Positions 1-60,165 of a stretch of 64,000 bases of DNA are shown piece by piece. The stretch is from Chiloscyllium plagiosum (Eukaryota). The stretch is from positions 78,365,960-78,429,959 of the forward strand of contig NC_057710.1 in NCBI RefSeq assembly GCF_004010195.1. Direction: 5' to 3'. Each line of letters begins with the position of its first letter. Positions within the stretch are counted from its first letter, which is position 1. Position numbers and translations under genes: made by a program. Under the pieces are notes generated by a model. It did not search any database, was not told the DNA's origin, and saw only the letters and a program-made list of their open reading frames with translations.

Positions 1-337
1 GTGAACCTTTTTCCGCGTATGGAGTCGGGTATTACAAGAGGGCATAGCTATAAATTAAGGTGGGGGGGGTAGATATAGGACTGAAGTTGGGGTAGGTTCT
101 TCACTCAGCGAGTCGTCAGTTCATGGAATGCCTTGCCAGTAGCAGTGGTGGACTCTCCCTCTTTATGGGCATTTAAGCGGGCATTGGATAGGTATATGGA
201 GGATAGTGGGTTAGTATAGGTTAGGTGGGCTTGGATCGGCGCAACATCGAGGGCCAAAGGGCCTGTACTGCGCTGTATTGTTCTATGTTCTATGTTCTAT
301 GTTCTATGTTCTATGTTCTATGTTCTATGTTCTATGT
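1..337 (+). mobile_element. CR1/HER1-type LINE 3' end with (GTTCTAT)n tail
   Basis: Encodes a CR1 ORF2 C-terminus (TRGHSYKL..RFFTQRVVSSWNALPVAVVDSPSLWAFKRALDRYM), then the 3'UTR motif GAGGGCCAAAGGGCCTGTACTG and a heptamer tail at ~280-337. Confidence 0.9.
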
Positions 338-4224: not shown

Positions 4225-4295
4225 CATTTCCAAAGCCCCTCCCCCAAGTCCCTCCTCCCTACCTTTTATCTTAGCCTGCTGGACACACTTTCCTC

Positions 4296-4331
4296 ATTCC
4301 TGAAGAAGGGCTTATGCCCGAAACGTCGATT
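4296..4331 (+). ncRNA. Minimal type I hammerhead ribozyme motif (PLE family A), core intact
   Basis: ATTC-CTGAAGA-A-GGGC TTAT GCCC-GAAAC-GTC-GATT. Catalytic core is conserved, stem II is GGGC/GCCC, stem III is the palindrome ACGT; predicted cut after 4327. Confidence 0.85.
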
Positions 4332-4544
4332 CTCCTGTTCCTTGGATGCTGCCTGACCTGCTGCGCTTTTCCAGCAACACATTTTCACCCAGCAATTGCA
4401 GGAGAATGGTAAAATAAGTCTTCATTAGATTGCATGTGATTTTGAGAGGAATTTGAAGATAATGCTGCTCCCAAGCAAACCTGCTCTCTTTCTTCTAGGT
4501 CGTAAAAGTCATGAATTTGGAAAGTACTAATAAAAGCCTGTCTC

Positions 4545-5860: not shown

Positions 5861-5874
5861 AAAATAAATTTAAT

Positions 5875-6005
5875 GAAAGCAAAATACTGCGGAAACTAGA
5901 AATCTGAAATAGAAACAGTAAATGTTTGAAAAATTCAACAGGCCTGGCAGCATCTTTGGAATGAAGTTCAGAGTTAATTCTTTGAGTTTGATATGGCTAT
6001 TAAAG
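5875..6005 (-). mobile_element. PLE terminal fragment (family B), degenerate HHR
   Basis: AAAGCAAAATACTGCGG..GAAATCTGAAA..CAGGCCTGGCAGCATCT..CAGAGTTAA matches the left arm at 42170-42310. Confidence 0.65.
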
Positions 6006-9000
6006 AGGGTAAATTTAAAATCAAGTATTTACTTGCCTGAGCAGGAGACAGTGTTGGGCTGTGTCTACTGTTATAACGTGAAGACAGGCAGCTGAATCAA
6101 ATCAGCCTTTCTAACTCTGTATTCATAACACTTTAAAAACAAAAACTTCAAAGATATTCAAAATTGTCCCCAGTGTTTCCTAACCAGACATTTTGAATAA
6201 CTAATCCCAAACTTTGCGAATAATCAATTCTTGACACCATTTTGTAGCTTTAACACAACAATCTATTAACTTAAGCAGAATGGTAGTCTGCTGAAAAAAA
6301 GAAGCTTCCCAATTCAATTTGCCTGTTTCTGGAAAAGAACTCATATTTGGATGCAGAGAGGGGCCTGGAGCTGTTGTCCAGCTGCTTTGACATGAGAAAC
6401 CCATGAGTTTGTCGATATCTCTTGAATGATTCCATTTGCAAAAGATCCCCAGCAGCTACCGCATGAGATCAGCGACATCCATCTTTGTGTGCCAGAATGT
6501 TAAACAACACCCATCCAAACATCACAAAACTCATGCTCCTACCTTCAAGAACTAAGAGGTTTTGGCCAAAAATGAATTCATGGTGGAATACATATCTTTC
6601 CTTTCACTAGTTACGTTTATCTGTATTTCAGGATACCGAGAGGGATAAACATATTTTCATGATACAAACAATACAATAAATGTTTTCATGTATTTTTACA
6701 GAAAAACTTATTTTTATAATAATTCAATAATTTTGCTATATTTTAAAAGCTTGATGGAACTTTATTTTAAATCTAATATGATAAAAGCATACAATCAGCC
6801 ATATGAAGAACATGGTGAAACAATTAAAATTATGTTGTGACCCATGGAATAGTGTGACTAGAGAAAGATGGTGCACTCCTTATATCTCATGTCCTAACAA
6901 TATACACAGAAAAGAAAGGAGTACTTTTTTTTTTACAGAGGTGGAAGGTAGGTGGTCATGCTGGTAGAGAATGTATATGGTTGCAGTTGTAGTTAAGAGT
7001 TGCAATGGATGATGGGTTTATGAAGCATCTGGATTACCCTCAGGCAGTATCTGCATAAACATAATCAGAAAACACCCGGTGGGAGGCAAACAAACACCTG
7101 TTGTAGCTTGAATGGGGTCGTTGTTGGTCATGGCAATGGATGGTGTACAATGAAGGACCTTATGGCTGCCTGTCGTCCCACATGCCTGTAGCTTCTTAAA
7201 GGTGTCTTTTGCTGCTTTCATTCTTCTCCAACCTCCATTCTTCCATTGCTGGCTGTCAAAAAGTTAACATCAAACTCTTTGCAAAACAAATGATCTATTG
7301 TGCTTACACACAAGAGCATTGAAATGGGTTTTGACCTTTTTCTTTGTATGAAATATTTGAAATATTTAAGTGGGAAGGTGAATTGTGACCAGTCTGAGCC
7401 TGGAATTTATGCAACCATTCTTCTCTATCAGTTGTGTAGAAAATGATAGCATTCTAGGCGTCAATGAAATTAAAAATCACATTAATGTATTAATTGGCTT
7501 ATAAAATATAAATGCATTATTCATTCAATATTACAATATTAACATTCAGTGTTGCATTGCATTAAATCTTACATTGAAAATACTTTTAAAATTCATTCTT
7601 AATATTTCATCCTCAGTAAGTATAATGTGATAGTAAACATTCTATTTTTCCAGAGCGCCCTCAGCAATAGATGGTGCCTTATATTTAATTAAACACTTTG
7701 GTTTGTATCCTTGGCATTTAGTGTCTTCAAGAACTACATATTATCTTAAATAATGATGACAAGTTGAAGTTAAGGTCAGAGTAGGAAGTTGTGTTAGATT
7801 GAACACAGTCATGCTTAGAATTTTAAATAGCCACCTAAAATTCAGAAATATATTCATAAATGTGAAATGCCACTGACAATTAGTGATTATTGGTTAATCG
7901 GGGTCAGACCCCAGATTGTGGTAATATCTACAGGCAAGTCTTAATGAATTTTTGAATTTATGGAATGAGTGCAATGTAGTCCTAATGGACCTTTTGCTGT
8001 AGTCATTGTCCATGATTAATTGGTTAAATCTCCAAAAGATTCCTCGTCCAGCACTGAGTTGTATATCACAGCTCCATATGGAATTATTAAAAAACTGTTC
8101 AACTTAATTTTATAGTCAGAGACCTTCATACATATGATATAGCCTAAACCATTGCCCTTTATATAACACCTCATGATTATCAGTGAGATGGAGAATTTGA
8201 TGCCAGTTTTGATTATAATTAAAAGGATAATGTTAGGTAAGTTTTGCGGAAAATGCAGAGTTAATTTTAGTTGTCATAAATCAAAGTTTGTATTTTTCAT
8301 CTTAATGTGTAAATAATCATGGTTAACCATGATAGAAACAGGAAGGAAGCAATCATAATTTAAATCTAATTATCTTTATTGATGATGCATGAATATTGAA
8401 TTAAAGGAAGTAATTTGAATATCTACAAAGGATATGTCTTTGAAGATTCAAATGTTGATACGTGATCCTTAATTCTAACTTCCATTGGTTAAACATATTA
8501 TTTGGTTTTTTTTCCCTCCTAATCCAAGCTGATTCATTTTGAATCTGGTCTTTTGGATAAGGAAAGGAAAATTGGTTGATTAGTAGACAGGCATAGGTGG
8601 ATTAAAACTGTTACTGTCAAGAGGTCATACAGTTCAGAGTTATGCAAGATAACACCAAATATTTGATTTGAACTGTTTGGCTTGATGTGGTCAACTAAGA
8701 GGCTATTTATGATCTCAAAATTATGAGCAGCTCAAAGAGCTGCCAAGTAACTTTTACAGTTGTAAACAGATTCACACAGGTTGTATTATTATTCTAATTA
8801 CAATACTGCGATGAATTAAAACCTCCTGGTCCATCTTTAAAATTATTGACAGTGAACCTATAACTGGAAGAAATCAGAATGCTTATTGGTTTTCCGAGTT
8901 GATTGTATAATTCAAAGTTACATCAGAATGAAGTTTAAGAAGAACATGCCACACACACACTGGAGGACTGCATTAATTTTGGAACATTAGATTTCTAGGT

Positions 9001-13579: not shown

Positions 13580-13628
13580 CCACATTTCAGCTCTGATCGC
13601 CAGCATCTGCAGACCTCACTTTCTCCTA
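13580..13628 (+). mobile_element. PLE family A tail-only fragment
   Basis: CACATTTCAGCTCTGATCGCCAGCATCTGCAGACCTCACTTTCTCCTA matches 15862-15911. Confidence 0.75.
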
Positions 13629-13719: not shown

Positions 13720-13945
13720 ACAATATTGAGTCCTGAGGTGGAAAATGAGGTATAGTTCTTCCAGCTTACACTGAGCTCCGCTGGAGCAATGGAGCCAGCT
13801 TGAGACAGAGATGTTGGCCAGGGAACAGGGTGGTGTGTTGAAGTGGCAGGCAGGTGGAAGCACAGGATCTTTTTTATAGACAGAATGTAGGTGTTTCACA
13901 AAACAGTTGTTCAGTCTATGTTTCATCTTCTCAACATAGACAAGA
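13720..13945 (-). mobile_element. PLE GIY-YIG endonuclease fragment
   Basis: VYVEKMKHRLNNCFVKHLHSV..PPACHFNTPPCSLANISVSSWLHCSSGAQCKLEELYLIFHLRT is the C-terminal half of a PLE GIY-YIG domain. Confidence 0.8.
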
Positions 13946-14320
13946 CCAATTGCGAGCCCTCCAAAAGTTTTTGGCAAGTTTGTTGCAAGATGCCACAGGA
14001 AGATCCATGAGTGTGATTTCTCTAAAGACGCCCTCTCACAGAGGCTAATCAAATTAGTAACCTTGATGCATCAACTAAAGCCTATGAAGGATCCTATGGT
14101 TAAGTAAAAGGGCCATACGATTGCACATTGCTTGAAGATGAAGCCACAGTGGCAAGCGAAAAAGAATTACATGCTGTAGGCACAACCAATGACATTGTCA
14201 CTGTGAGCAAACCAACCAGATCTGAAACAGATTCATCTTCTCAAATCTACCCAAATACTGACCAGTTTAGCTTGATATCTGTGAAGCATGAGACTGTAAG
14301 GAGCATTGGGCGAACATTGA

Positions 14321-14725: not shown

Positions 14726-15298
14726 GTAGAAAATCAGTTTCTAAATACCCAGGCAGAGCCAAGAAAAAAGCACAGGTGACCAACAGTATGGTACAACAGC
14801 ACCATACTGGCAGAAATAAGGTAAACAAACACAAATGTATTGATGAAGTGAACAGTCAGCTGAGTGATAGGCAAAGTAAGAAAGATAACTGAGCATTCAA
14901 TGTTGTTTACCTCACAAACTATTCCAATGGTAGAAGGCAATCAGAAGCTTTTACAGCTATGAACAACATACGGCCCAAAAAGGCAGGATGACACATCTTA
15001 AAGCTATAAATGAAAAAAGGAGCTAGTAACAAAATATTACCATTACACATGTAGCCCAGCAAGTGGTGCAACATGGTAGAGTCTATGAGAGACTATCACA
15101 CAGCATATCATCAATTCCCTGCAAAGGTGTAATCACACTGCAATATGCATGCTTATTTTGACTTCCTGAATCTTCTACCAGGTAGATACCAATGATCCAA
15201 CAGTGACTGGAATATCTGAACGCCCAGATTTCAGCACAGCCACAACTGGTGGGATTCAAACTACATTCGCTATATTGAACAGGCCAGATGTAACTCCA

Positions 15299-15910
15299 TC
15301 GCCAGACCATGGCAACCATGCAGGTCCTTGGCCTGCTCCATCGCCAGACCATGGCAACCCCTGCAACCGCAAGAAATGAAAAATTTGCACCCACACCTCC
15401 CCCCTCACTTCCCTCCAAGTCCCCAAGGGATCCTTCCATATCCATTTCAAATTCACCTGCACCTCCACACACATCATTTACTGCATCCACTGCACCCGAT
15501 GTGGCCTCCTCTACATTGGGGAGACAGGCCGCCTACTTGCGGAACGTTTCAGAGAACACCTCTGGGACANNNNNNNNNNNNNNNNNNNNNNNNNNNNNNN
15601 NNNNNNNNNNNNNNNNNNNNNNNNNNNNNNNNNNNNNNNNNNNNNNNNNNNCTGTCCCCACCCCCTCTCCGGCCTATCACCCTCACCTTAACCTCCTTCC
15701 ACCTATCTCATTCCCAATGCCCCTCCCCCAAGTCCCTCCTCCCTACCTTTTATCTTAGCCTGCTTGGCACACCCTCTTCATTCCTGAAGAAGGGCTTATG
15801 CCCGAAACATCGATTCTCCTGCTCCTTGGATGCTGCCTGACCTGCTCCGCTTTTCCAGCAACACATTTTTCAGCTCTGATCTCCAGCATCTGCAGTCCTC
15901 ACTTTCTCCT
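15299..15910 (+). mobile_element. Penelope-like element (GIY-YIG to terminal repeat; spans an N gap)
   Basis: PCNRKK*KICTHTSPLTSLQ..FTCTSTHIIYCIHCTRCGLLYIGETGRLLAERFREHLWD. HHR at 15780-15815 (GTC decayed to ATC). 13-bp TSD AGATGTAACTCCA at 15286-15298 and 15911-15923. Confidence 0.92.
15570..15651. other. Assembly gap (N run)
   Basis: Run of N. Confidence 1.
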
Positions 15911-17420
15911 AGATGTAACTCCACCAAATCAATCAAGGTTTAAGATATTCTTCAGGTAAATGAGTGATACTTTGGCCAAAGCCAGTCTGAATAGTAATGA
16001 AATCAGCAACTTCTGAAGATTAGTAACTATAAGCAACAATGAGCAACTATCACTATCTAGGGATGGCCTGACAGAATTAAAGTTCTTGAGAACATTTGTT
16101 CATTTTGGCCACGCAGAGATATTACAACAGATTATTTTTCAATGGTACTCAAGTCCTAATGCCAAAATATCCTTTATACAAGGATATTATGATCTTTTAA
16201 ACACCAAGATACAGGAAAATCAACACATAAATTTGTGCACTGGCCTGGAAAGGGATAGGATATTCAATAAATAATGAAAGAATGGGAACATGTGAAACAT
16301 ACCAATCCCAGTAGTAAAGGCATCCTCTTCAACTACATAATTCTTCAGTCACAACTTCGATAAAAATAGGAACAGATCAGTTTATAGTGCATGAAGATAT
16401 TTACATCCATGTGATCAATTACTTTTCCAAATTTTCCCATAGCTCAAACATTAGCAACACAGTGAGGACAATCATATTTGAAAAAATGGCTGCTATTTTC
16501 AGTTTATTTACCATACTAGAATGAACAGTGTATGACAATGGACTCCAGTTCAAATAATTTCAAGGAATGTGTACTGAGTGGGGAGTGACCCATACCACAT
16601 TGTCATTAGCCTTGCCTCAATGGTCTAGCAGAATGTATGCTACATTCTATCATATATACAGCCTTGAGTTGAACCACAAATCAATATTTTCCACATTGCA
16701 TTGTTGCAACATCGAAGATGAGATTACCATCCGCTACACAATTTATGCTCCAGAAGTGAGTGTAAACATCCTTGCCCAGAAGCCAATTATTGATCCTTAT
16801 TGAAACATAAGGTATCCTTCTTCAAAGGCAAAGGAGAATGAAAGAGACACATGGCCAGCAAACAGGTTAAAAAACAAACTAATGTATGGGTCAGGTATCC
16901 AAGTCTAAATACAGCAAAGATTTCAAACTTACGTAACCACAACATGTTTGTGATCACGGTTATATATTACAAAGGAACAGAGGGCAACTCACAACAATGT
17001 ACAATCTGGCATGAAGAATGAGAGATAATTGTGCAGAGATTTTGAGAGACCGCAAACAGCAGCAAGACTGTCAGATTGTCAACCAAGAGCAACCAAACAC
17101 AACAGGTAAATGGCTATATGATCACCAGAATAAGACAAGTTGTCAAACATCTAAAACATTATGTAAACTCTGTTTCTACCTATTTTTATAATTAACAAAT
17201 TCACAATATCTGCCCATGTATAACCATGTTTAATTGTTTGGGATTTCTTTTTCTCTTTGGAGAAAAAGGTGGCTGTTTTGTTATGTCTCACAGCTCATTT
17301 GTAGTTTACCTTTAAGAGCGATACTAATTATGTCACCATATCATATCATATGACATGAGGACATAAAGGGAGAAGTCTCCATCTTAACTGGGGTCACATT
17401 AAGCATGACATGGCAAAAGC

Positions 17421-18385
17421 ATCCAAAAACGATGAACTGGGAGTGTTGGAAATCAGCAACAAAAATAGGTCCAGCGACCCTTCTTCTGTTCTGATATGAA
17501 ATGTTAACTGTCCTTTCTCTCTACACATACTGCCAGATGACATGCCATGTGAGAAAATGTGAGGTCATGCACTTTGGTAGGAAGAATAGAAGTATGGACT
17601 ATTTTCTAAGTGGGGAGAAAATTCAGAAATCGGAAGTTCAAACGTATTTTGGGAGTCCTAGTCCAGGATTCTCTTAAGATAAACTTGCAGGTTGAGTTGG
17701 TAGTTAGGAAAGCAATACAATGTTGTCAGTCATCTTGAGAGGACTATAATATAAAAGCAGGGAAGTATTTCTGAAGCTTTATTAGGCTCTGGTCAGACCA
17801 CATTTACAGTATTATGAGCAATTTTGGGCCCCATATCTTAGGAAAGATGAATTGGACCTGGAGTGGGTCCAGAGGAGGTTCCTGAGAATGATCCCAGGAA
17901 TGAAAGGCTTAACATATGTGGAATGTTTGAGGACTTTTGGACTATACTCGATGGAGTTTACAAGGTTGAGGGGGATCTAATTAAAACTTACTGAATGGCC
18001 TGGACAGAGTGGATGTTGGGAAGACGTTTCCGTTGGTAGGAGAGATGAGGACCCAAGGTCATAGCCTTAGAGTAAAGGGAAGACCTTTTAGAATGGAGAT
18101 AAGGAGAAACTTGTTTTGGCAGAGATTGGTGAATCTGTGAAATTCATTGCTGCAGAAGGCTATGGAGGCCAGATCATTGAGTGTCTTTAAAACTGAGATA
18201 AATAAGTTTTTGATTACCAAGGGGGATCAAAGATTACAGGGAGAAAGTGGGAAAATGGGGTTGAAAAGCCCATCCGCCATGATTGAATGGCAGAACGGAC
18301 TCAATGGGTTGAATGGCCGAATTTCTGATCCTGTCATATGATCTTAGATCCACTGAGTTTTTCCAGCAATTTCTGTTTTTGTTTG
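17421..18385. mobile_element. Inverted PLE terminal hairpin element (family B) split by a CR1 insertion
   Basis: 10-bp TSD TGGCAAAAGC at 17411-17420 and 18386-18395. HHR remnants GGTCCAGCGACCCTTCTTC (-) and GAAATGTTAACT (+). The tail resumes at ~18348 after the CR1. Confidence 0.7.
17540..18347 (+). mobile_element. CR1 LINE 3' portion
   Basis: KCEVMHFGRKNR..ALVRPHLQYYEQFWAPYLRKD..LEWVQRRFLRMIPGMKGL..., ending in a CR1 3'UTR. Confidence 0.9.
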
Positions 18386-20284: not shown

Positions 20285-20770
20285 TAAAAAAAAAACAATA
20301 TAGCACAGAAACTAGCTTTTTAACCCAACAAGCCTGTGCTGATTCATGATGTTTTTTTAAAACTAGAGATCTTTTGTATCGAAACGGTCTATATTCCTCT
20401 ATTCTGTGCCAATTCATGCATTTACCTCTGGCAGCATATTCTAGGCAATTATTATGCTCTGTGTAAAACAAAAAGTGCCTCTCACATCTCTTTTAAACTT
20501 ATCTCTTTTATCTTAGACTGATGTCCCCTAGTTATTGACATTTCTCCCCTGGGACAAAAACTCTGAGTATTTAGTCTTGAGGAGGGGTCTCTGGATCCAA
20601 AAGGTTAACACTGATTTCCTCCACAGATGATCTCAGACCTGCTGAGCTTTTCCAATAATTTCTGTTTCTGTTTCTGACTATCCATTCCATTCTACGTGTT
20701 TCATAATCATGTAAACTTCCATCAGGTCGCCCCCTCCCCCACCCACCTCATCTTTCAACGTCAACTGAAA
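20285..20770 (-). mobile_element. Decayed CR1 3' fragment containing a PLE insertion
   Basis: CR1-like reverse strand (TGTCCCCTAGTTATTGACATTTCTCCCCTGGGACAAAA..CTTCCATCAGGTCGCCCCTC). Confidence 0.65.
20572..20672 (+). mobile_element. Short PLE family B HHR+tail insertion (degenerate)
   Basis: TTGAGGAGGGGTCTCTGGATCCAAAAGGTTAAC..CCACAGATG..GACCTGCTGAGCTTTTCC, flanked by imperfect repeats TCTGAGTAT / TCTGACTAT. Confidence 0.7.
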
Positions 20771-20771
20771 C

Positions 20772-20870
20772 AAACTGAGGGAGGGTCTTTGGACCTGAAA
20801 CATTAACTCTGGTTTTTCTTCACAGATGCTGCCAGACCTGCTGAGCTTTTCCAGCAGCTTCTGTTTTTAT
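20772..20870 (+). mobile_element. Short PLE family B HHR+tail insertion
   Basis: CTGAGGG-A-GGGTC TTTG GACCT-GAAAC-ATT-AACT, followed by CACAGATGCTGCCAGACCTGCTGAGCTTTTCCAGCA. Confidence 0.75.
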
Positions 20871-21165
20871 TACCACACCAGCCTCCCACATGCACATACA
20901 CACACAATATAATGCTCAACCTTCTTGAGGTCCACGATTTTACTAGCATTCAAGTCCCAACTCTTCCATCAATATCCCACACTTGGCATTCATCTTACTT
21001 ATTCTCTAAGTGTGATATTATCACAAACTCCTAGGCCCAAACTTTCTTTTTCCAGATTTCAGGAATCCAAGCCAATTGCATACCTGGAAACTAGAGTAGA
21101 TCTAGTTCAGCCTGTTACCATACTGCCATCTATATTATAATGAAATCTGAGATCCAAAATGGTGG

Positions 21166-21884: not shown

Positions 21885-22207
21885 CCACGGAGAATGGGTA
21901 AACTCCACACACAGAGTCCAGATTCGAGTGTTGCTGGAAAAGCACAGCAGGTCAGGCAGCATCTGAGGAGCTGGAAAATCGATGGCTCAGGAACAGAAGG
22001 GCTTTTGCCCGAGGCGTAGATTTTCCGGCTCCTCGGATGCTGCCTGACCTGCTGTGCTTTTCCAGCACCACTCTAGTCTGGACTCCAGCATTTGCAGCCC
22101 TTGTTTTTACCTAAACTCTACACACAGTCGCCCAAGTCTAGAATCAAACCTGGGTCCCTAGCACTGTGAGGCTGCAGTGTTAACCACTGGACCACCATGC
22201 TGCCCCA
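21885..22207 (-). mobile_element. HE1 SINE head fragment at the LTR/RT deletion junction, split by a PLE hairpin
   Basis: GAGAATGGGTAAACTCCACAC..CAGTCGCCCAAG..AACCTGGGTCCC..GCAGTGTTAACCACTGGACCACCATGCTGCCC. Confidence 0.8.
21915..22111. mobile_element. Hairpin PLE mini-element (inverted family A termini plus tail)
   Basis: Arm 21915-21980 is the reverse complement of ~22018-22085. HHR remnant GAAGGGCTTTTGCCCGAGGCGTAG. 16-bp TSD TAAACTC(C/T)ACACACAG at 21899-21914 and 22112-22127. Confidence 0.88.
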
Positions 22208-29569: not shown

Positions 29570-32500
29570 ATATAAAGGCCCTGGTCAATATGGCTGACAA
29601 GTCTGTGTTGATGTAATTTTAAAAGGGCCGCCACGTCTTATAGAATAGCTCAGTTTTCTGGTGCACGACATTCGTAAGAAAATCCAGGGGAACATGCTCC
29701 ATCACTAATATACACCACCCCATGAGACCTCCACAGACACGTCATGTGGAGGCTTAGTGGCTGGCTTGGATCCTTCATTTGGTGTCATTGGTGCCCTCTT
29801 ATTAAATTCACCAAGTTGCAACTCCCACAGGGTATGCCAGGGAAGGGGTAGATCTGGGGTTTTTTCTGAGGTCCAGCTCATTAAAATGTTCTTCCTTGCA
29901 CAATACATGAGAATGTTGAATAATCCCTTTCCATGTTCATCTAGAGATTCAGCAGTCCCAAAAGAAGGATACTGGATCCGCCTTAACTTCAATTCCCAGA
30001 ATCTCCTCCACCTCATTCACTATAACAACCCAGTACCTACGGATCTTATGGCATGACCACAGACAATGTGTCAGGGTGCCGGTGCTTGTTTTACATTTAG
30101 GGCACCCTGGAAATGTTCGTTTCTTGAATTTTGCTAATCGCTCCAGGGCCATATGGGCTCTATGGAGAATCTTCAACTGTATAGCCTGCTCTTTATTGCA
30201 TATTGAGATCTTTTTCACATTCTCCCATATGTACTCCCATGTTTCAGATAAAATTTCTACCCCTAGTTCCCAACTCCAGATTCCGTAGATTCTTTCCATA
30301 TCTTCCAAGGTGACCCCTCTCTGTAAATGGTAGAAAATACTGACTGAGCACTGGGCGCACTCTTCTCTCCATGTTGGACTTGTAGGGCTGAGCTAAAAGC
30401 GTGGTCCTTCTCTGTATATAACCTTTAATCTGAAAATAACGGAAGAGGTCCCTACCAGGTCGCCCATGTTTGTGACTCAGCTGGTGAAAAAACATTAGGA
30501 CCTCTCCTTCAAATAGCTCTTCCAAACTGGAAACTCCCTTGACTTCCCACACTTTAAAGCTGGAATCCATTGACCCTGGCCCGAATCCTGGGGCTCCATC
30601 TAAGGGGGTAAATGGTGAGGTCGTATGCAGGTTACCCTCGCGCTGCCATATCATACTGCACGTTTTAACCGTGCTGATGACAATCGAGATTCTACAATGC
30701 TTTCATCTGATCCATAAACAGCAATTTGCGGAGGGGACACCTTGCCTGGAAGGCCTCGATGTCAAGCCATATCGACCTTGGGTCCTTCCGCACCCAGTCA
30801 CTCACATAGGACAATAAGGTGCTTATTGGTATTGCTTAAAGTCTGAGAGATCTACCCCTCACCCCCATACACTGTGGGAGTTGCAACTTGGTGAATTTAA
30901 TAAGAGGCCACCTAAGACACCAAAGGAAGGATCCAAGCTAGCCACTGAGCCTCTGCATGACGTGTCTGCACAACAACAGGAGCATTCTCATGGGACATAG
31001 TCGCTGGTATGGTAGCTGAGGAAGAACATCCATATTAATCAGAGCTATTCAGCCTAACCATGATATTGGTAACGCCTCTCAGCGTAGAGAGTAATTTTGG
31101 CCTCTTCCATTCTTGCCTTTGGGGCAACTATTTTAGAGTCCTTCCAAATAGCCTCTGCCAATGGTTTGATTACTTAGGTGAATAGCAGAGACGAGAGAGG
31201 ACACCCTTGTCAGCTGCCTCTCCCAGTGCTAAAATAATCTGATTTTATAACTTTTGTAGGATTGTCAGCATAGGGTCATTATACTGCACAGCCACCCACT
31301 AGCGAAAGCAACCCCAAGGCCAAACTGTTCCGGTCACCAAAAGGAGATGGCCACTCCACCCAGTCAAATGCCTTTTCCCTGTCCAAGGAGACCACCATGT
31401 CAAACTGACTTCTCCTGATATACCTGTACTATATTCAACACTCTCCTGATATTATTGGAAGAGGTATGACCCTTAATGCTACCTGTCTGCTCTTCCTTTA
31501 CAATAGTGTGCAGTACCTTTTCTAATCTCAAAGCTAGCATTTTACACAGGATTTTAAAATCTACATTCAGCAGCGAGATAGGTCTATACAAGGCACAGTC
31601 CTCAGGACCTTTCCCTGTCTTTAGAATAAGGGAGATTTTGGCCTCCCAAAGAGAGGGCGGAAGGCAGTCCTGGCTGTATGTGTGATTGTACTTACCCAAT
31701 AATGGCTCGGCCAACATGTTTATGAACTCCTTGTAGAACTCACACAGAAACCCGTCCAGGCCAGGGCTTTGCCACTTTGGAGCTGCCTTCTTGCCTCTTG
31801 AATTTCTTGTATTGTTAAGGGTGCATTCAACAGGGTGGCGTTTATATTGGGAAGATCCAGATTTCAGAAAAGAATTCCATCCTTGCTACTCCACCCTCAC
31901 AACCATCCGACTGGTACAACTCTGTGTAAAATTTCCTGAATATTGCATTAATCTTTTTAGACTCTGAGTGATAGCACCAGTTCTCTCCCTAATGGACACA
32001 ATGGACTGCAGGGCACTTTTCTTCCTGGCCAAATATGCCACGTACCTGCCTGGCTTATCCCCATATTCAAATAACCTTTGTTTCACACAGGAGACTTCAC
32101 TCTTCACCACAGAGAGCTGTGACCTGCTGTAGCTTAGCCACAAATGGTCTATCATAATATGCCGATTCGGCTGCCTTCAGCCAGGCCTTAAACATACGTT
32201 GCTGTTCTCATCTCTGCGTCTTCCTGGTTGCTGAGTACGAAATGATTAAGCCCCTTAAATAAGCCTTGGTTGTCACCCAAAGCATCAATAAATTACTGGC
32301 TGTACCTGAGTTAATGTCCCAGAAGGTCCTAAACTCCCTTGTGAAGTGCTCTATAAACTTGCTTTCTTTCAAAAGAAATGGATCCATGTGCCAATGCCAC
32401 GTATCTATTCCACTATCTTTGATCTTAACATCCAAGTACATTGCCGCATGGTCCGAAATGGCTATATTCCCAATCCTGCAGGATAATACCGAAACCTGAC

Positions 32501-33935: not shown

Positions 33936-34272
33936 TCATTGTCTAATGCAGCCCACGGCCCCCCAAGGGGGAAGAAGCATATTTGTGGTGCACCGACTGG
34001 AGAAAAGACAGGATTTATAAAAGCTAAAAACTACTGCTACAGATACAACAAAAGCCAAAGAAAAACCCCACTATTAAAGTAAACAAACAAATATACAAAC
34101 AACAGATAACTGGAGATTTACCACTCACCCATAGGGGGCACTCATCCCAATCCCTTCTACCAGCATGGTTCCTTCCAGCTAAAGCTGCATCCCAAACCCA
34201 AGAAGGACAGCGACAAAGAAAACCTATTATTTACACATGTGAAAATTACAAGTGGACGCCCAATCCAACCCC

Positions 34273-34398
34273 TCATTCCTGAATGAGGTCTTTTGCCCAA
34301 AATGTTGATTCTCCTGCTCCTCAGATGATACCTGACCTGTGCTTTTCCAGCACCACACACTTGACTCTAATCGTCAGCATCTGCAGTCCTCACTTTCA
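34273..34398 (+). mobile_element. Short PLE family A HHR+tail insertion in the L1 inter-ORF spacer
   Basis: CATTCCTGAATGAGGTCTTTTGCCCAAAATGTTGATTCTCCTGCTCC..CAGCATCTGCAGTCCTCACTTTC, with flanks CAACCCCT / CATCCCCT. Confidence 0.8.
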
Positions 34399-37229: not shown

Positions 37230-37845
37230 ATTCTTGACATGGAATTCCGAGCAGGTCCCTGGCAAGGGTAGTTCTGTTGTTATCTCATGGACTACTCCTA
37301 TCTCGTGGCCACCTCCTCCTATCTCACTCTGGACCATGACCCAATCATTGAACACAAAGCTATTGTGCTCACAATGGTTACTCATTTCATCTGGTGATCT
37401 CCCCTTCATTTTCCACTTAACAACCCTCCAGCTTCAGGACTCAATGTCGAGTTCAATAATTTTAGGGTTTGAGCACTTTCTTCCATGTCATTACCGTAAC
37501 ACCCACATACCACGTCTTATCATCACATGCCAACACAAACAATCCATTGTTAGATACTATTGGTCCCCATTAGCAGCTATTCATTCTCCCAGGCTAACCT
37601 TTACCCATTCCTTTGTCTACCCAACTGTGTGTGTATGCCTCTCTCTCTCTGCCTTTCTGGGCTCCATCTCCATTTGTTATTGACTCCTTCACTCTCTCCC
37701 ATTCCATGTTCATGATAGGTACCAGTTTTTTCCTAGCTACAATCAGTTCTGAAGAAAGGTCACTGGACCTGAAACATTAACTCTGGCTTCTCTACACAGA
37801 TGCTGCCAAACCTGCTGAGTTTTTCCAACAATTTTTGTCTTAGCT
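37230..37845 (+). mobile_element. Internally deleted PLE (family B) with terminal HHR
   Basis: Pre-RT remnant (..LISSGDLP) fused to a GIY-YIG end (SGLNVEFNNFR ~37433-37465), followed by the terminal repeat. Confidence 0.75.
37745..37782 (+). ncRNA. Hammerhead motif (PLE family B), near intact
   Basis: AGTT-CTGAAGA-A-AGGTC ACTG GACCT-GAAAC-aTT-AACT. Stem I AGTT/AACT and stem II AGGTC/GACCT are both perfect. Confidence 0.8.
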
Positions 37846-42169: not shown

Positions 42170-42420
42170 CAAATAAAAGCAAAATGCTGCAGTTGCTTGA
42201 AATCTGAAACAAGCTCAGAGAATGTTGGAGAAACTCAGCAGGCCTAGCAATGACTGGGAAGTGAGAAACAGAGTTGACGTTTCAAATCTTGTGTGACTCT
42301 TCTTCAGAACTGAGTTCAGTTCTGAGGAAGAATCATGTCAGACTTAAAATCTTGGCTCTGTTTCTCACTCCATAGATGGTGCCAGCCTTGCAGTGTTTCC
42401 CAGCATTCCCTGTTTTTGAA
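42170..42420. mobile_element. Hairpin PLE mini-element (family B), back-to-back HHRs
   Basis: Arms are inverted about CAGAACTGAGTTCAGTTCTG (42305-42324). The minus-strand HHR is intact; the plus-strand HHR is decayed. Confidence 0.8.
42272..42311 (-). ncRNA. Minimal hammerhead ribozyme motif, core intact
   Basis: AGTT-CTGAAGA-A-GAGTC ACACAA GATTT-GAAAC-GTC-AACT. Stem I is perfect; stem II pairs fully with two G.U wobbles. Confidence 0.8.
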
Positions 42421-42939
42421 GCAAGTTTGCATTTTCAGGAGTCAATCATCATCATAGGTCAGGTAGAGGATTCCTCTCGATCATTACATTCCCATCCTCA
42501 TATACCAAACCAAGTTATTTTTTCAACCGAACATAGGGCTGATTCTATCAAAAGGCAGCATCAGGAAACTGTGATTTCTTTTTGCAAATACCAACAGCCT
42601 AGAGCAGATTCCATGGCAGCTGTGCAACCATTAGAGTAAATCTAGATGATGAAAATGCCTTAAACACTTTTGCCCTAGGCTCTTTCCAGAGCATTAGTGA
42701 AAGCAAGAAGAAATAACTTGTGTTGGCATTGTGCAGCAGGACGTCAGCACATGGCAAAGAGCTTCACAAAGATCCTTTGAAGGTTAGTAATAACTGCATT
42801 GTAGGTAAACACAACAAATGATTAACAATCTGCATCTCTACAAACAAGCTATGAAATAAATTATCAGACATTCCTTCATAGTTGGAAATCTTGGGCCTTG
42901 TTCGCTTCAGCCTTCCCACCATTTTCCTCATACCCAACA

Positions 42940-44859: not shown

Positions 44860-46160
44860 CTCAGGAATATGAACATCTATTCTTACCAGATTTCTCGTAT
44901 TGTACATAATGAAACTTACATTCACGTCTGTATTTAGACTGTCCCCCAATATCCGTTGCAAATCTACCAAATTCCGCAGATAAATTGGCTACACTCACAT
45001 TCTGCTTCCTACAAGGACTCCATTCCATTCTCCCAGTTTCCCCATCACCGTTGCCTCTGTTCCAATGATGCCATCTTCCAGGGCTTTTGACATGTCCTCT
45101 TTTTCTCCTCAATCAAGGCTTTTCACCCATTAGGGTCCTCAGCTGTGTCCAACCCAATTACCACACTTCGGCCTTCATCTCTTTCCAGAACAATGTGTTC
45201 TTCATGTCCTCATTTTCCACCATCAGTCTCCATATTCAACAGATCATCCTCTGGCAAATCCAGCACCTCTGTTGAATATCACAGCCATCATATCTTACCT
45301 CCACCTCTTGTCAGCATTTCACAGGAACCTTTCTCTCTGAGACACTCATATGCACTCTTATGATCTCCTAACACTTTGTTATGTCCCAAAATTGTACATT
45401 CCCATGTAATTGTAGAAGGTGTAACACTTGCCCTTTCACCTCCTCCCTGCTCACCATACTCAAAATACACCTTCCAGATGAAGTAAAATTGTACTTGTAC
45501 TTTTTCCAATCTAGTCAGCTGCATTCACGGCTCACAATGTGGTGTACTCTACACTGGGGGAAGCCTAAATGTAAACTGGGTGACTGCTTTGCAAAACACC
45601 CTTGGTCAATTCATGGGTATGATCCCATTCTTCCAGCTTCTTGCCATTTGATCGCACTACCTTGTGCTTAAAGTGAACATTTCTATCCTAGGCCTGTGGC
45701 AGTGCTCCACCAAAACCCAGTGCAATCTGAAGGAAGAGCACTTCTCTTTCCACTTAGGCAGTTTATAGGCTTCAGGACTCGACTTTGAGTTTAATCATTT
45801 CAGACACGAATGCTGTCCTGCATTTAGATTATACCATCTCCTCATACTGCTGTCCTGATGGCATGGGTTTGCTCGGATCAAAGGTGACCTATTTTCTACT
45901 ATTCAACCCTATCATTAACAATGGCTATTTTGCATCTACAAGTCTCCTTTCCTACCATTAGCATTCCCTTTATCTTGTGCTTTAGATGTCCTCAGCATCT
46001 GTTCTACTCATTCTTCTTCCTCTTTGTCAACTGCAAAGCAATCATCAATTTCATGCCAACTTCAGTTCCTAAAGAAGAGTAATTTTCGTCAAAATGCTAA
46101 CTCTGTTTCTCTTTCCACAGACGCAGCTAGACCTGCTGAATTACTCCAACAGTTTCTATC
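44860..46160 (+). mobile_element. Decayed PLE (RT thumb, Zn finger, GIY-YIG, terminal repeat)
   Basis: IPFSQF (~45022-45040); FPCNCRRCNTCPFTS; KCKLGDCFAKH..LPASCHL; SGLDFEFNHFR. Family B tail with a decayed HHR at ~46062-46103. Confidence 0.8.
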
Positions 46161-46311
46161 TTTAAATGCATCTGTGCTAATTAAAAAAAAATGCTACATG
46201 CAAAGAATAAAGGGAGGGTAATAATGGCAGCTAGTTCTCAAGAACACTATTGATTTGCAATTTCCTCCAAGACATCTGCTATTATAGTTATAATAAATAA
46301 AAATTCACTGT

Positions 46312-46982
46312 TCTTGAAAATGAAGTCACAGATAGATAGGATAGTGAAGGCGATGTTTGGTATGCTTGCCTTATTGATCAGTGCATTGAATATAGGATTT
46401 GGCAGGTCATGTTGTGGCTGTACAGGACATTGGTTAGGCCACTTTTGGAAAACCGTATGCAGTTCTGGTCTCCTTGCTTTGAGAAGAATGTTGTGAAACT
46501 TGAAAGGGTTCAGAAAGGATTTACAAGGATGTTGCTAGGGTTAGAAGGTTTGAGTTATAGGGAGAGGCTAAATAGACTAGGGCTGTTTTCCCTGAAGTGT
46601 CAGAGGCTGAGGGGTGACTTTATAGAGGTTTACAAAATCATAAGGGGCATGGTTAGGGTGAATAGACAAGGTCTTTTAGCTGAGGTGGGGGAGTCAAGAA
46701 CTAGAGGGCATAGATTTAAGGTGAGTGGTGAAAGATTTAAAAGGGACCTAAGGGGTGACTTTTTCACACAGAGGTGGTGTGTATATGAAATGAACTGCCA
46801 GAAGAAATGGTGAATTTTGGTACAATTACAATATTTAAAAGGCATTTGGATGTGTATATGAATAGGAAGGGTTTAGAGGTATATGGACCTAATGTTGGCA
46901 AATGGGACGAGAATTATTCAGGATATATGGTCGGCATGGACAGGAAGGGTCTGTTTCCATGCTGCATATCTCTATGATTGTA
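46312..46982 (+). mobile_element. HER1/CR1 LINE 3' portion
   Basis: LYRTLVRPLLE..FWSP..LERVQKGFTRML..LRGDFIEVYKI..RTRGHRFKV. Confidence 0.93.
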
Positions 46983-55737: not shown

Positions 55738-56285
55738 GTAGATTTACATTTAAATGGCACCTTTCCCAAACACCTGATCTTGCAAAGAACTTTACAGCCA
55801 ATAAAGTGATTTTTTTTTAAGCATAGTGTAATGTGGGAAGCTCAACAACCAATTTGCATCCTGCAAGGCTTCGCAAATAGTCATGTGATCATGGCTGAAA
55901 ATGTGTTGCTGGAAAAGCGCAGCAGGTCAGGCAGCATCCAAGGAGCAGGAGAATTGATGTTTCGGGCATGAGCCCTTCTTCATGATATGTGATCATGACC
56001 AAGTAATCTGTCATGATGTCAGTGGAGGGATGAATATTGGCCAACACACCAGGATAATTCTGCTGGCTTTTGAAGTAGTGCAATGGAATCTTTTATATCC
56101 ACTTAAGAGGTTAGGCAGGTGTCATTTCAAAGTCTCATCCAAAAGGTGACTCTTTCAACAATCTGGCATTCCATTAGGACAGGATTGTATATTTCTGAGC
56201 CTGAACTGTTGTGTTTAAACCCGAGAGAGCAACTTGAATGCACAACCTTCACTTGCAGTGGTGAGTACCACTGCTGACTGCTACC
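55738..56285 (-). mobile_element. Deu-domain SINE, near full length, containing a PLE insertion
   Basis: Reverse complement of a Deu SINE (TGTAATGTGGGAAG..CCAATTTGCA..GAGGGATGAATATTGGCCAACACACCAGG..TCTCATCCAAAAG). Confidence 0.7.
55894..55986 (-). mobile_element. Short PLE family A HHR+tail insertion
   Basis: 11-bp TSD ATGTGATCATG (55883-55893, 55987-55997). Minus strand starts ATCaTGAAGA-A-GGGC TCAT GCCC-GAAAC-aTC. Confidence 0.9.
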
Positions 56286-56672
56286 AATTAAAGCAAACTA
56301 AGCAACTGCAGTAGGAAGGCAGTGTCAGCTAATTCTACACCAATTTGCTGTCTCTTTGGATATTACCATTGAAAAAAAAAGCCCAGGAGCAGAGTGACCT
56401 TCTGCCTGGGACTCAGAAGATGACACTCAATTTTTGTGTCAGATAGTCACTTCTACAGAAGCACCAGCCATACAAACAGGCCACTTCAAGCAAGTAAAAA
56501 CAGTCCTAGATATTGCATGCTCTGACAAGCTACACTGTGAGGGAGGTCCAGTAGGAGATTGGCAGATATCAATCCCAATGTGAATTGTACATATATGTTC
56601 CACATGTAATCATACAATGTAGAAAGGCAGCAAGATTCTACACCCACCTTAAGTTGACGCAATTCAAGGTCG

Positions 56673-56707
56673 TTCCTGATGAAGGGCTTACGCCCGAAAC
56701 GTCGATT
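56673..56707 (+). ncRNA. Minimal type I hammerhead ribozyme motif, canonical core
   Basis: TTC-CTGATGA-A-GGGC TTAC GCCC-GAAAC-GTC-GATT; predicted cut after 56703. Confidence 0.88.
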
Positions 56708-56784
56708 TCCCTGCTCCTCGGATGCTGCCTTTCCAGCACCATACTCTTGACTCTGATCTCCAGCATCGGCAGTCCTCACTTTCT
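56673..56784 (+). mobile_element. 112-bp PLE family A HHR+tail insertion
   Basis: Perfect 14-bp TSD GCAATTCAAGGTCG (56659-56672, 56785-56798). The insertion begins at the HHR 5' arm. Confidence 0.93.
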
Positions 56785-57520
56785 GCAATTCAAGGTCGGT
56801 ATGATTTATAAAACATCCACATCTGAAAGCGTTCAGACTCTGCAGGCAGCGAGAACTGGTGCCAATAGGAAAAAGTGACCATTCACCTGCAAGGCTATCT
56901 GTAAAATCTTTATGTAACTCCCGAACTCCATCTCCCCTTGAAAACCCCCACTTGGCACTCACCTCTGTTGCATGGTGATCTTCTAATGTGCTCCTTTCAC
57001 TCAACACCCACTCCTTCCTCTTCTCAGTTCACAAAGAGGCCATTCCAAAAACAAAGACAAAATATGGTTTAGTATTGACTCCCTGCAGGTGTTCCTTCCA
57101 GCTGCCTAGGGAAAATGGGATGTTCTTTTCCCCAGAGCTGAGAATAGGAGACATCCTACTTTATCAAGGCAGCCTATATGGAGATCCTGAACACCAGTGG
57201 TATCCAGTGCCACCAATCGATGAACTAACCTTCTCAATGCAGTCAGTGTGAGTGGCAATGTGGCGTCGCATCAAAGGGTTTTTCCTGAGAGTATTAAGCC
57301 AGAGACATTTGCAAATGAGGAAAAAAGGCTCATTTTCACTATCATATGGCAAACGTAGTGCATGATAAGGTAATGGGATACCATTATATGGCAAAGATAA
57401 AGCATGGGCATGCAAGTGGGCAAGGGAGGTAGGTGTCTCTTCATGTGTTAATATCACATCAATTTGTCAAACAGAATAAAGAGACAGCCAATGCTAAGGA
57501 TGGGGCCAAGGCTGGTGGAA

Positions 57521-58251
57521 GAATGTGTGTTGCTGGAAAAGCACAGCATGTCAGGCAGCACCCGAGGAGCAGGAAAATTGATGTTTCGGGCTGGAGCCCT
57601 TCATCAGGAATGATGCTGGGAGCTACATTGGGAGACTGAACTCCTCTATATTGGTGAGACTAGACACCTTCTCGCAGAACATTTTAGAGAACATCTCCAG
57701 GACATCCGCACCAATCAACCACACCACCTCGCGGCCGAACATTTCAACTCCTCCTCCCACTCTGCCAAGAACATGCAGGTCCTGGGCTTCCTCCATCACC
57801 ACTCCCTCGCCACCCAATGTCTGGAGGAAGAATGCCTCATCTTCCGTCTCGGGACCCTTTAACCCCATGGCATCAATGTGGACTTCACACAGTTTCCTCA
57901 TTTTTCCTCCCCCCACCTTATTCCAGTTCAAAACTCCCAGCTCAGCACCATCTTCATGACCTGTCCCACTTATGAATCTTCCTTCCCACCTATCTGCTCC
58001 ACCCTCTTTACCAACCTGTCACCTTTACCCCCCACCTCCATCCACCTATTGCACTCTCAGCTACCTTCTCCCCAGATCCACACCCCCTCCCATTTATCTC
58101 TCCATCCCCGAGGCTCCCAGACACATTCCTGATGAAGGGCTCTGGCCCAAAACATCAATTTTCCTGCTACTCAAATGCTGCCTGACCTGTTGTGTTTTTC
58201 TAACAACACATTCTCAACTCTGATCTCCGGCATCTGCAGTCCTCACTGTCT
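57521..58251 (+). mobile_element. PLE with inverted 5' terminal repeat, GIY-YIG fragment and 3' terminal repeat
   Basis: LLYIGETRHLLAEHFREHLQDIRTNQPHHLAAEHFNSSSHSAKNMQVLG..LEEECLIFRLG. HHR on - at ~57576-57612 and on + at ~58125-58160. TSD GCTG(G/A)TGGAA at 57511-57520 and 58252-58261. Confidence 0.92.
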
Positions 58252-59944
58252 GCTGATGGAAAAGTGGCTGAGCTGAGAGTAATCACTTTGGAGAAGGAGG
58301 CCTTAGAGTTTTCAGATAATAGGGAGGGCATTGCAGATAATAAGGTTGGACCAGTCAAACAGAAGAGTGGGTCATTAGCATGTTAAAATGCATATTTGTC
58401 TGTTAAGCTAAGTTGCACATTAATGTCTTTCTGTAAATCATTCTACCAGACTGAGAGGCTAAAGTGGATCGAGCTGTAAGATGATTCCAGTTCTGATAAA
58501 GATGAATGACAGCCAGAAGGTGCACCGCCATCTGCCTTTCCCTCAATCTACACCAGTATTGTTACACTCCGAGGCCTTTCCAAGGATCTGGGTTTAGAAC
58601 TGAAGGCCCATGCATATGATCACTTCACTGGCTTGAGTGTTACAGCAGTGCTTGTGTCATCGGGGGATGTCATCTCCTTTCACCTTACATGGAGAGCATC
58701 CACTCCTCTTGGTATAGTGAGGGGTTGAGGTTGTAGAGAGTGAGGCAGCTGGAGATGGAGGCTGGCAGAGATGGATGTACAACCCAGATGGCATAGGTTT
58801 ACAGATGACAGTCAGGCAGGTACATGATTCATGAGTAAAATGAGTGATGTTATCCTGGTCTGTCTCTGCATGGCCCTGGCACCTGAATTGGTGAATCGTG
58901 AAGCTGAATTCGTGCTTTTTAGACAGATGTCAACAGATTTTACAGACCTCTTTGTGAACGGATGCAGAGCTTATTAGATGACTTTTCAGATGTGGAGCTA
59001 ATAAGTGAACTCAGTGAATTGGTAATTTCAGTTAAAGTACTTTTCGGAAATATTTGCAAACTAAACTGAAGACTTATAGTATCAATGAGCTGCAGAAGGA
59101 CAGATTTAAATACAATCTAATCTTTACAAGTCAACAAACTCAACTGTTGACAAAATCACTCGAACACTCAGGTATAGCACGACATATTGAAGGGCCAAGA
59201 AAAAACGCATCTCAGTCATTTTTTTTAATGCATGTGGCATTAAATATCATTGGCAGAGGTAGTGCCCGAGAGTATAAAAACTGAGGACCATCCCAACCAA
59301 ACTACATCCAAGTAGTAACTTCCAGCTTCAATAAAGACCTTCTGATATCCTGCCAGAGGGAGAAACATGCAGTGATCAACAAACCAGAAGCTATGTGCAC
59401 AGCAGGAAAAAAAGTGGTGACTGCATGTTCACATTGTCAATTATATGGAAAATATCAATATCATCATAACATTTTAAGTGTTTGCAGAACTTCTAATTAA
59501 TTTGCCCTTCAGTAAACTGGAGGCTATTCATTATTGCCGAAGACTGACTCTTGGGCAAATTGGTGTGCTCACTCTGTGAATTCTAAAAAGCATGTATCCA
59601 CAGACATGGGGAGCTATGACAAAACCTATAAGTATAAGTCTTTCAGCATGTAATCATTCACCAATGAGTCAATTGTTTGTCCTAAACTTCAGTATTACCG
59701 ATAAAAGATGCAATTCATGAAGCTATTCCTCTTTCATCCACCAGGACAGTTCGGAAAAATAGCAAATCATGAGGAAAACCTGCAATTCTGCTCCATAACA
59801 GTTAAAGACCAAGTAATTAGCAAGTGATTGGTAGATATGTTACCACAGAGAATGCCCAAATTAATGACAATCGACGATTAACTGCCAGATTTTGTTTAAA
59901 TTTAAAATCATTCAAGTTGGCTCTGATTGGTCAAAGACATTGTC

Positions 59945-60165
59945 AAAATGTGTGGTGCTGGAAAAGCACAGCAGGTCAGACAGCATCGAAGGAGTACGAG
60001 AGTCGACGTTTCAAGCAAAAACCCTTCATCACGAATTCCTGATGAAGAATGTATGCCTGAAACTTGGACTCTCCTGCTCCTCAGATGCTGCCTGACCTGC
60101 TGCATCTTTCCAGCACCACACTTTGCAAGTCTGACTCTCCAACATTTGCCGTCCTCATTTCTTCC
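59945..60165. mobile_element. Hairpin PLE mini-element (family A), HHR-derived motif on both strands
   Basis: ~170-bp imperfect palindrome centred on GAATTC (60033-60038) plus a 3' tail. TSD TTGGTCAA(A)GACATTG at 59927-59942 and 60166-60180. Confidence 0.9.

Follow-up and report, generated by a model that had tools for sequence, protein, structure and literature searches.

Short hammerhead-bearing copies of a Penelope-like element in Chiloscyllium plagiosum share a 5′ edge at helix I

In a 64,000-nt stretch of Chiloscyllium plagiosum DNA (here called the window), short inserts correspond to that end of an endonuclease-positive Penelope-like element (PLE) which carries a minimal hammerhead and a tail, and their 5′ ends cluster at the outer edge of helix I of the ribozyme. 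Nearly the same edge is found in a related family from a second, likely animal, source. The explanation that we slightly favour is that reverse transcriptase (RT) initiates within the tail and copies up to a fixed RNA 5′ end, where it runs off; this end, likely a transcription start, would lie at the outer edge of helix I.

The window consists of repeat-rich vertebrate DNA. High among the 463 matches of an RT fragment at 3247–3486 are named shark and ray proteins with 71–91% identity; a Chiloscyllium punctatum protein is 91% identical. A GIY-YIG domain is located at 15446–15568 (E value 5.6e-5), and the long copies encode RT followed by a C-terminal GIY-YIG domain, also by tblastn. A zinc-finger-like cysteine linker lies between RT and endonuclease in the homologues P0006, P0044, and P0097 and is of the same type as a broken remnant near 15365 in a long A1 copy of the window; passages of Craig 2021 (PMC8557442) describe this linker as a feature of endonuclease-positive PLEs. 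The RT fragment, the GIY-YIG domain, and the cysteine linker of the homologues together point to an endonuclease-positive PLE as the source element, which may tentatively be called Neptune-type, a name resting on the linker. The copies also show a hammerhead in the terminal repeat, an optional tail, an inverted 5′ partner, and target-site duplications (TSDs), as expected of PLEs. Elsewhere in the window, 13729–13947 (−) holds a GIY-YIG remnant of a more distant PLE family, with no hammerhead found adjoining. The stretches 31400–31885 (−), 46340–46813 (+), and 279–641 hold LINE-RT-like open frames and an exact 173-bp tandem duplication that is accompanied by a short-unit microsatellite and is possibly an assembly artefact.

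Positions are numbered from C3 of CUGANGA (position 0), which places the predicted cut after +27 in family A. The ribozyme has every part of a minimal type I hammerhead: CUGANGA, helix II, GAAA, the palindromic positions 15.1–16.1, NUH, and a short helix I (three of four pairs in family A, four of four in two family B copies). The core is intact in the copies at 56676 and 4300 and decayed in several others of the 13 copies tabulated. CTGATGA occurs in the window no more often than chance predicts (15 copies against 15.0), and an Rfam search of the window gave 0 matches at the gathering score; identification of the motif thus rests on the whole minimal fold, whose self-cleavage as a dimer is predicted.

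The focal copy is a solo insert of family A at 56673–56784 (+), 112 bp in length, with a minimal hammerhead and the full tail; it has a 14-bp internal deletion relative to its relatives. Identical 14-bp TSDs at 56659–56672 and 56785–56798 (both +) border the insert, with a score that was reached in 0 of 398 null trials anchored at the junction. The predicted core at 56676–56703 (+) follows the architecture described in parts of Cervera and de la Pena 2014 (PMC4209133) and consists of CUGAUGA, an unpaired A, a 4-bp helix II, GAAA, palindromic ACGU, and C17 at 56703, so that the cut is predicted at 56703/56704. The initial annotation, made from the sequence, had described this insert as beginning 3 nt before CTGATGA inside a perfect 14-bp TSD, and this is exactly what we find (start −3). 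Its second example, 55986 (−) with an 11-bp TSD, also stands: the solo insert of subfamily A1 at 55894–55986 (−) starts at −4, ends at the near 3′ site, and has a perfect TSD, with the core damaged at C3. The boundary placed at 34273 does lie near the ribozyme, but this old family A solo copy (34271–34397, +) starts somewhat further out, at −6 to −8, and no TSD better than the null expectation could be assigned to it (P ~0.12). Likewise, the family B solo copy at 20572–20672 (+) starts at −4/−5 as described, but its TSD is borderline (9 bp with 1 mismatch; P ~0.05). The boundary given as 20772 (−3) has to be withdrawn; family B similarity begins at 20775 (position 0) in a solo copy (20775–20871, +) that has no TSD. 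These copies, like the two dimers described below, keep the upstream ribozyme half, with the predicted cut lying after +27, which supports the proposal that they derive from uncleaved RNA.

A profile census of the window gave 20 arms in 16 insertion units, 12 arms belonging to family A and 8 to family B; 5 of the 20 are long. The profile was built from 16 of the 20 arms, and a reversed control gave 0 matches. Ten arms (8 of the 16 units) start between −8 and 0, 30 nt upstream of the predicted cut site, with the main piles at −4/−3 in A and about −6 to −4 in B. If the count is limited to those non-long units, 4 of 11, in which a strong TSD or the centre of a palindrome pins down the junction, P is 6e-5 (3e-3 after correction for 47 windows). 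The clustering of 5′ starts near the ribozyme, claimed in the initial annotation, is therefore more than chance; the set of boundaries on which the claim was built was incomplete, having missed two head-to-head dimers, both arms of which are among the ten. One is a family A dimer at 59943–60165 (centre 60035/60036), in which both arms start at −3/−4, one arm being tailed and the other tail-less, with a TSD that is perfect over 9 bp and extends to ~15 bp with one gap. The other is a family B dimer at 42171–42440 (centre 42312–42315; no TSD found), both arms of which start at about −6; one family B row (42321), anchored one base off, was left out. The 3′ ends in the window fall in two places, ~35 nt apart. 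The census contained no head-to-tail array.

The remaining family A copies start at other positions. A further head-to-head dimer (21915–22111) has arms starting near +4 and +16 and a 16-bp TSD with 1 mismatch. At 57516–58251, a compound insertion with a weak TSD consists of an inverted short arm, running from 57620 down to ~57516 (start ~−17), that abuts a 5′-truncated long copy with a GIY-YIG fragment. Two 5′-truncated long A1 copies are located at 3239–4386 (+; RT fragment, hammerhead at 4300, 14-bp TSD) and at 15299–15910 (+; linker remnant and GIY-YIG, hammerhead at 15784, 13-bp TSD). The 5′ start of the latter (15284–15377) is a rearranged, duplicated piece of the endonuclease region in front of the colinear part. 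A tail-only piece lies at 13581–13625 (+; no TSD found). Family B further includes a decayed solo copy at 5874–6009 (−) with a 9-bp TSD and an approximate start of ~−6, an old long copy with a PLE ORF remnant at 44980–46167 (+), a likely long, internally deleted copy at 37302–37832 (+; weak RT match at 37302–37391, hammerhead at 37749), and a tail-only piece at 18338–18384 (+).

The edge was also followed in shark sequencing runs. Contigs and reads of four runs were aligned to 15652–15951, the 3′ part of a long A1 copy, at 88% likeness; the raw single-cell RNA run X22 contributed 0 aligned reads and so has no bearing on transcription. Summed contig depth steps up between 15672–15771 and 15802–15861 by 5.8-fold in run X1 and 12.4-fold in run X13, and still by 2.5-fold or more if read as conservatively as possible, and upstream of the step the depth has no steady slope; such depth does not equal copy number, since it is inflated by fragmentation and by other subfamilies with the same tail. 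No A>T difference reaches 3% in the alignment, so the depth over the core is of A1 type. The step is 65-fold in run X16, which is only presumed to be RNA; contigs cannot show RNA level, and we read this step neither as expression nor as an RNA start. Among the joints listed, the tail end is joined to the head at 15780 (−4) in 22 and 13 contigs and at 15781 (−3) in 12 and 7, and one joint row runs from 15912 to 15812 (+28). These head-to-tail joints imply a unit of 129–131 nt and are rare in genome-wide contigs. In X16, the top 5′-side loose end is at 15781 (−3), with 21 contigs whose flanks are unlike (agreement 0.38), as compared to 419 over the four 3′-end positions 15909–15912; some loose ends in X1 and X13 fall outside the counts.

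Related elements were retrieved by protein alignment from metagenomes and from the genome bin G001; a scan of metagenome contigs with the shark tail pattern gave 0 matches. The bin is titled bacterial and is likely heavily contaminated with animal host DNA. Its contigs carry many PLE copies of several families (loci L081–L088) and are for this reason likely animal host DNA, perhaps from a coral to judge by the motif. The RT of the main G001 family is ~60% identical to that of the shark family. Arms were found through matches to the core or the far tail, all of which were mapped; a duplicate partial row (C15), a duplicate insertion (C243, 2 arms), and, as an event, a contig-edge arm (C643) were dropped. 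The interval −10..0 contains the starts of 25 of the 70 arms, whereas the density at −120..−11 would predict 1.3 (0.055 versus 0.003 starts per nt); sub-peaks lie at −10..−7 and −3..−1. Arms that reach the far 3′ site form a subset without bias in 5′ position, and 13 of these 38 start at −10..0. Long copies match the reference upstream of the edge and short copies stop there. Nine solo copies start at −10..0, none of the nine with a TSD above null level; TSDs of 10–17 bp were found in 12 of 17 compound rows, one of them within a microsatellite. Two clusters of 3′ ends are seen, at +90..99 and at +143..150; the last base of the reference is +150. A second G001 family has five long copies, 0 short copies among the five, and one core-only match; a third has four long copies and six tentative short matches. 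Both are sparse, and a further G001 query retrieved only the main family again.

A smaller pile of six arms in five insertions starts at +27..+32 in G001, around the predicted cut (+28); among them is a solo with a 13-bp TSD whose first base is +28 itself. Short arms lacking both core and far tail are under-counted downstream of +5, which weakens the +27..+32 excess and leaves the upstream comparison unaffected. Copies starting at or just after the predicted cut include L141 (G001 C383), L142, L140, L139, and L143. The G001 copies starting at +27/+28, with the shark joint at +28, are a possible genomic trace of cleavage in vivo.

These data bear directly on whether the edge is a product of ordinary random 5′ truncation, with the peak created by detection limits and by subfamily divergence upstream of the ribozyme. 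Subfamilies A1 and A2 do diverge upstream of about −8, and the edges of family B copies without TSDs are uncertain. The junctions in the strict count are, however, fixed by TSDs and palindromes, the core depth in the shark runs is of A1 type, and in G001 the reference continues to match long copies upstream of the edge but not short ones, with 25 starts at the edge where 1.3 are expected; random truncation is largely refuted and we regard it as scarcely credible. The assertion that the 5′ edge is non-random thus holds in the window and in G001.

The initial annotation proposed as one reading that the short inserts are a non-autonomous hammerhead-headed family, SINE-like or retrozyme-like, mobilised by PLE proteins; an independent family of this kind would have its own master copies. 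Mobilisation by the PLE RT and GIY-YIG endonuclease is supported. The short copies are very abundant, the depth step is larger in X16 than in the DNA runs, head-to-tail joints of a 129–131-nt unit exist, and non-autonomous PLE derivatives are known (MRC1, in sections of Craig 2021, PMC8557442, and retrozymes), all of which would suit such a family. Against it, the short copies align end to end, with every base colinear, with the 3′ end of ORF-bearing long copies, and have no foreign head. In G001, comparison of 24 short with 21 long arms gave no diagnostic column among 12 variable columns (lowest p 0.61) and a net divergence of −0.001 (permutation p 0.91), over 90 nt, with both dimer arms counted and limited power. 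Short copies occur in A1, A2, B, and G001, always beside long copies, and a tree of 10 window arms groups the short copy at 55986 with two long A1 copies. Identical dimer centres are found within different TSDs. Since short and long copies carry the same variants, the data argue against a separate SINE or retrozyme lineage, and an independent family is improbable. Of the two patterns that the initial annotation had named as contrary to its proposal, interspersion of short and long copies was found, and the lack of a 5′ peak was not, the peak being real. Assignment to a SINE was rejected as well: in place of a small-RNA-derived 5′ head with its own promoter, the inserts align with long PLEs and have no Rfam match, and an own lineage with diagnostic mutations was seen neither in the G001 arms nor in the window tree, within their limited power. 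Non-LTR retrozymes have canonical type I ribozymes and cut-site-bounded units; the present copies have a minimal ribozyme, and most start ~30 nt upstream of the cut.

The head-to-head pairs show a second regularity. In 13 of 16 distinct G001 pairs one arm ends at +143..150 and the other at +91..102, and 0 of 16 have two far 3′ ends. Over seven segregating sites, the two arms of a pair agree completely in 6 of 12 cases, whereas only 8% of unrelated pairings do (p 5e-5). A tailed arm is joined to a tail-less arm in nearly all pairs (G001 C85, C491, C539, C10, C334, and others), and the window pairs at 59943–60165, 42171–42440, and 57516–58251 are of this kind. The tailed/tail-less pairing and the common variants suggest that both start sites of a single template are used in a coordinated way; the shared haplotypes could alternatively come from one dominant source locus or from later conversion. 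At L115 (G001 C728), L122, and L131, the arm junctions hold short repeated scraps of the helix II region, as if RT had repeatedly re-primed at the template end.

Run-off from a fixed RNA 5′ end would proceed as follows. With the short copies colinear with the 3′ end of ORF-bearing long copies, copying would begin at either of two internal sites bracketing the tail, seen here as the two 3′-end clusters and described in vitro for the anole PLE in sections of Frangieh 2024 (PMC11167929). The 5′-end piles near helix I in A, B, and G001 and the smaller +27..+32 pile in G001 would be RNA 5′ ends, the main piles representing uncleaved RNA that begins at a sequence resembling an initiator (family A, TCATTCC; family B, TCAGTTC; the A at −4) and the minor pile ribozyme-cut RNA. 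A transcript beginning at the edge would have hammerhead and tail at both ends, so that long or truncated copies would result if RT started in the 3′ tail, and a run-off of 90–130 bp if it started in the 5′ tail. A head-to-head dimer would likely be a single event on a single template, with one arm from each start site. The model needs a 5′ module, and loci L027 and L028, in which a hammerhead lies ~800–1050 nt upstream of the ORF match, supply it. Among the options of the initial annotation, the one that agrees best with the data is that the boundary is simply where the terminal repeat normally ends, provided that this edge is the RNA 5′ end.

The RNA start is inferred from DNA copies, as contigs cannot show RNA starts, and the evidence for it is mixed. 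The edge in A and B resembles the initiator consensus, YYANWYY; the match is weak, as two of its pyrimidines belong to the ribozyme itself and the two families are relatives. The edge is not a single base, there being two sub-peaks in G001 and a family B dimer that reaches 2 nt past the initiator A. None of 19 near-full-length loci inspected begins at the helix edge. The lack of TSDs above null level in the nine G001 solos, the 0 short copies in the second G001 family, and the small number of −3 loose ends in X16 (21, far below the 419 at the 3′ side) also count against the model. An untemplated cap-type G is not consistent: the G at −8 in G001 is templated, and one shark joint row has a lone G. 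In favour of the model, start sites within the pLTR are described for Penelope and Chlamys-3 in parts of Schostak 2008 and Craig 2021 (PMC8557442). For Drosophila Penelope, passages in Cervera 2014 (PMC4209133) and Schostak 2008 describe a 75-bp intron that ends at helix I and a start 46 nt ahead of this intron; that start is ~120 nt upstream and not at the helix, which counts against run-off from the helix edge.

The Drosophila arrangement also suggested a splice acceptor as origin of the edge, which was rejected, with no AG before −4 (A) or −8 (G001) and with the AG of family B lying inside the copies. The far tail end of family A (15873–15912) has a pyrimidine tract and AG, with a branch-point-like CTGAT ~32 nt upstream; the near 3′ end is also beside an AG, and G001-type tails (L003, L050, L085) are similar and ~17 nt longer. 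The tail end may be a conserved splice acceptor.

In the main rival explanation, which takes in the fold-directed RT termination considered in the initial annotation, the ribozyme fold could itself set the edge, either through 5′-to-3′ trimming of a longer RNA that stalls at helix I, or at the RT step, through release by the cDNA mirror of helix I or through a helix I paired in a two-copy hammerhead. The edge follows the length of helix I in three families, which fits a fold-set edge equally well: family A has a 4-bp helix I and an edge at −4/−3, family B 4 bp with a bulged extension to ~−6, and G001 3 bp with a bulged extension to −7/−8 that matches its sub-peaks at −3 and −8/−7 (both extensions read by eye). 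On the other hand, RT would melt the 3′ arm first, making a monomer helix unlikely as a stop at its far edge, and helix I of family A has a U–U mismatch. Whole inserts fold no better than shuffled sequences (z −1.6 to +0.6) and have no stable global fold, and the predicted snap-back pairs, ~(−8,+40) or (−3,+31), occur in 0 of 16 pairs. We consider trimming and the RT variants, taken together, rather unlikely. A cause at the DNA level is very improbable; here the element's endonuclease would cleave the insertion intermediate at ATT, or the cDNA would fold back on itself at a short palindrome. The anole PLE endonuclease prefers 5′-ATT-3′ according to sections of Frangieh 2024 (PMC11167929), and ATT is found at −4 in A and −7 in G001; G001 dimer centres lie on short palindromes at −10..−7 and +32, and the tail-to-head joints could be insertions into an older copy. 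Neither family B nor the −3 peak of G001 has ATT at the edge, though, and the TSDs have no fixed ATT end. The same 4-nt palindrome at +17..+20 gives no peak, and solos need no palindrome.

If run-off is extended to the whole cycle of this PLE lineage, the RNA would start at helix I and be terminally redundant, like a retroviral R region. Internal priming would then regenerate the terminal repeat on each full-length copy and shed 'strong-stop' pieces made of hammerhead and tail as the commonest product, a dimeric RT would build inverted pairs from both sites on one RNA, and copies starting at +28 would record cutting in vivo. We offer this fuller scheme as a possibility that is more doubtful than not.

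Much of this has precedents. Published work, in the parts that concern these elements, already describes solo and opposite-strand minimal hammerheads, inverted partners, tails, solo pLTRs, and retrozymes as PLE derivatives. Sections of Frangieh 2024 (PMC11167929) report for the anole Poseidon element PAc internal RT starts at two sites bracketing the tail, extension of both target strands, a shorter product from a 5′-shortened template, and uncleaved RNA as the dominant template. The two internal starts, the uncleaved template, and the extension of both strands are likenesses to the present copies. PAc belongs to another clade, the text in these sections does not discuss genomic 5′ edges, and no RNA reads are given there at the cut site, whereas here a few genomic copies begin at it. 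Truncated and inverted PLE units in passages of Arkhipova 2013 (PMC3846280) and Craig 2021 (PMC8557442) resemble ours in 5′ truncation, inverted neighbour, one-end tail, solo pLTRs, and TSDs; variable truncation and the pLTR problem of PLEs are also described in parts of Schostak 2008. In the former accounts, upstream copies are variably truncated and TSD-less solo pLTRs are ascribed to recombination or deletion, in contrast to the TSD-flanked solos and dimers with a fixed helix I edge seen here.

The minimal hammerheads of metazoan PLEs in Cervera and de la Pena 2014 (PMC4209133) have, in the sections concerned, the same core, with an unpaired base before helix II and palindromic positions replacing helix III; single motifs are widespread and opposite-strand pairs lie 100–700 bp apart. 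These sections contain no mapping of the 5′ edges of single motifs, and their prediction is that the RNA is cleaved and that circles serve as templates; in most of our short copies, by contrast, the ribozyme is uncut. Non-LTR retrozymes, as treated in parts of Cervera 2020 (PMC7229834) and Li 2026 (bioRxiv 10.64898/2026.07.22.740005), are likewise non-coding, hammerhead-bearing, and related to PLE pLTRs, and are tandem repeats with mostly canonical type I ribozymes and circular RNAs. Our copies, in contrast, occur largely as scattered monomers or inverted pairs; their ribozyme is minimal, and they contain no sequence that is theirs alone. Our search, whose scope lay outside Repbase, Dfam, and subscription journals, found no published 5′-end clustering at helix I; Fig. 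S2 of Frangieh 2024 (PMC11167929), in the part that plots genomic coverage over this region, could show it. We regard the fixed 5′ edge as a real regularity of a known element class that was not found in print.

For annotation, the most abundant PLE-derived repeat of this region (20 arms in 64 kb) should be recorded as PLE end modules and not as a SINE. The 5′ edge common to the shark and the second source, the minor edge at the cut site, and the paired arms from one template lend themselves to simple tests. How PLEs replicate can be addressed directly through these three features. If true, run-off from a fixed RNA start would explain how PLEs make their end repeats.
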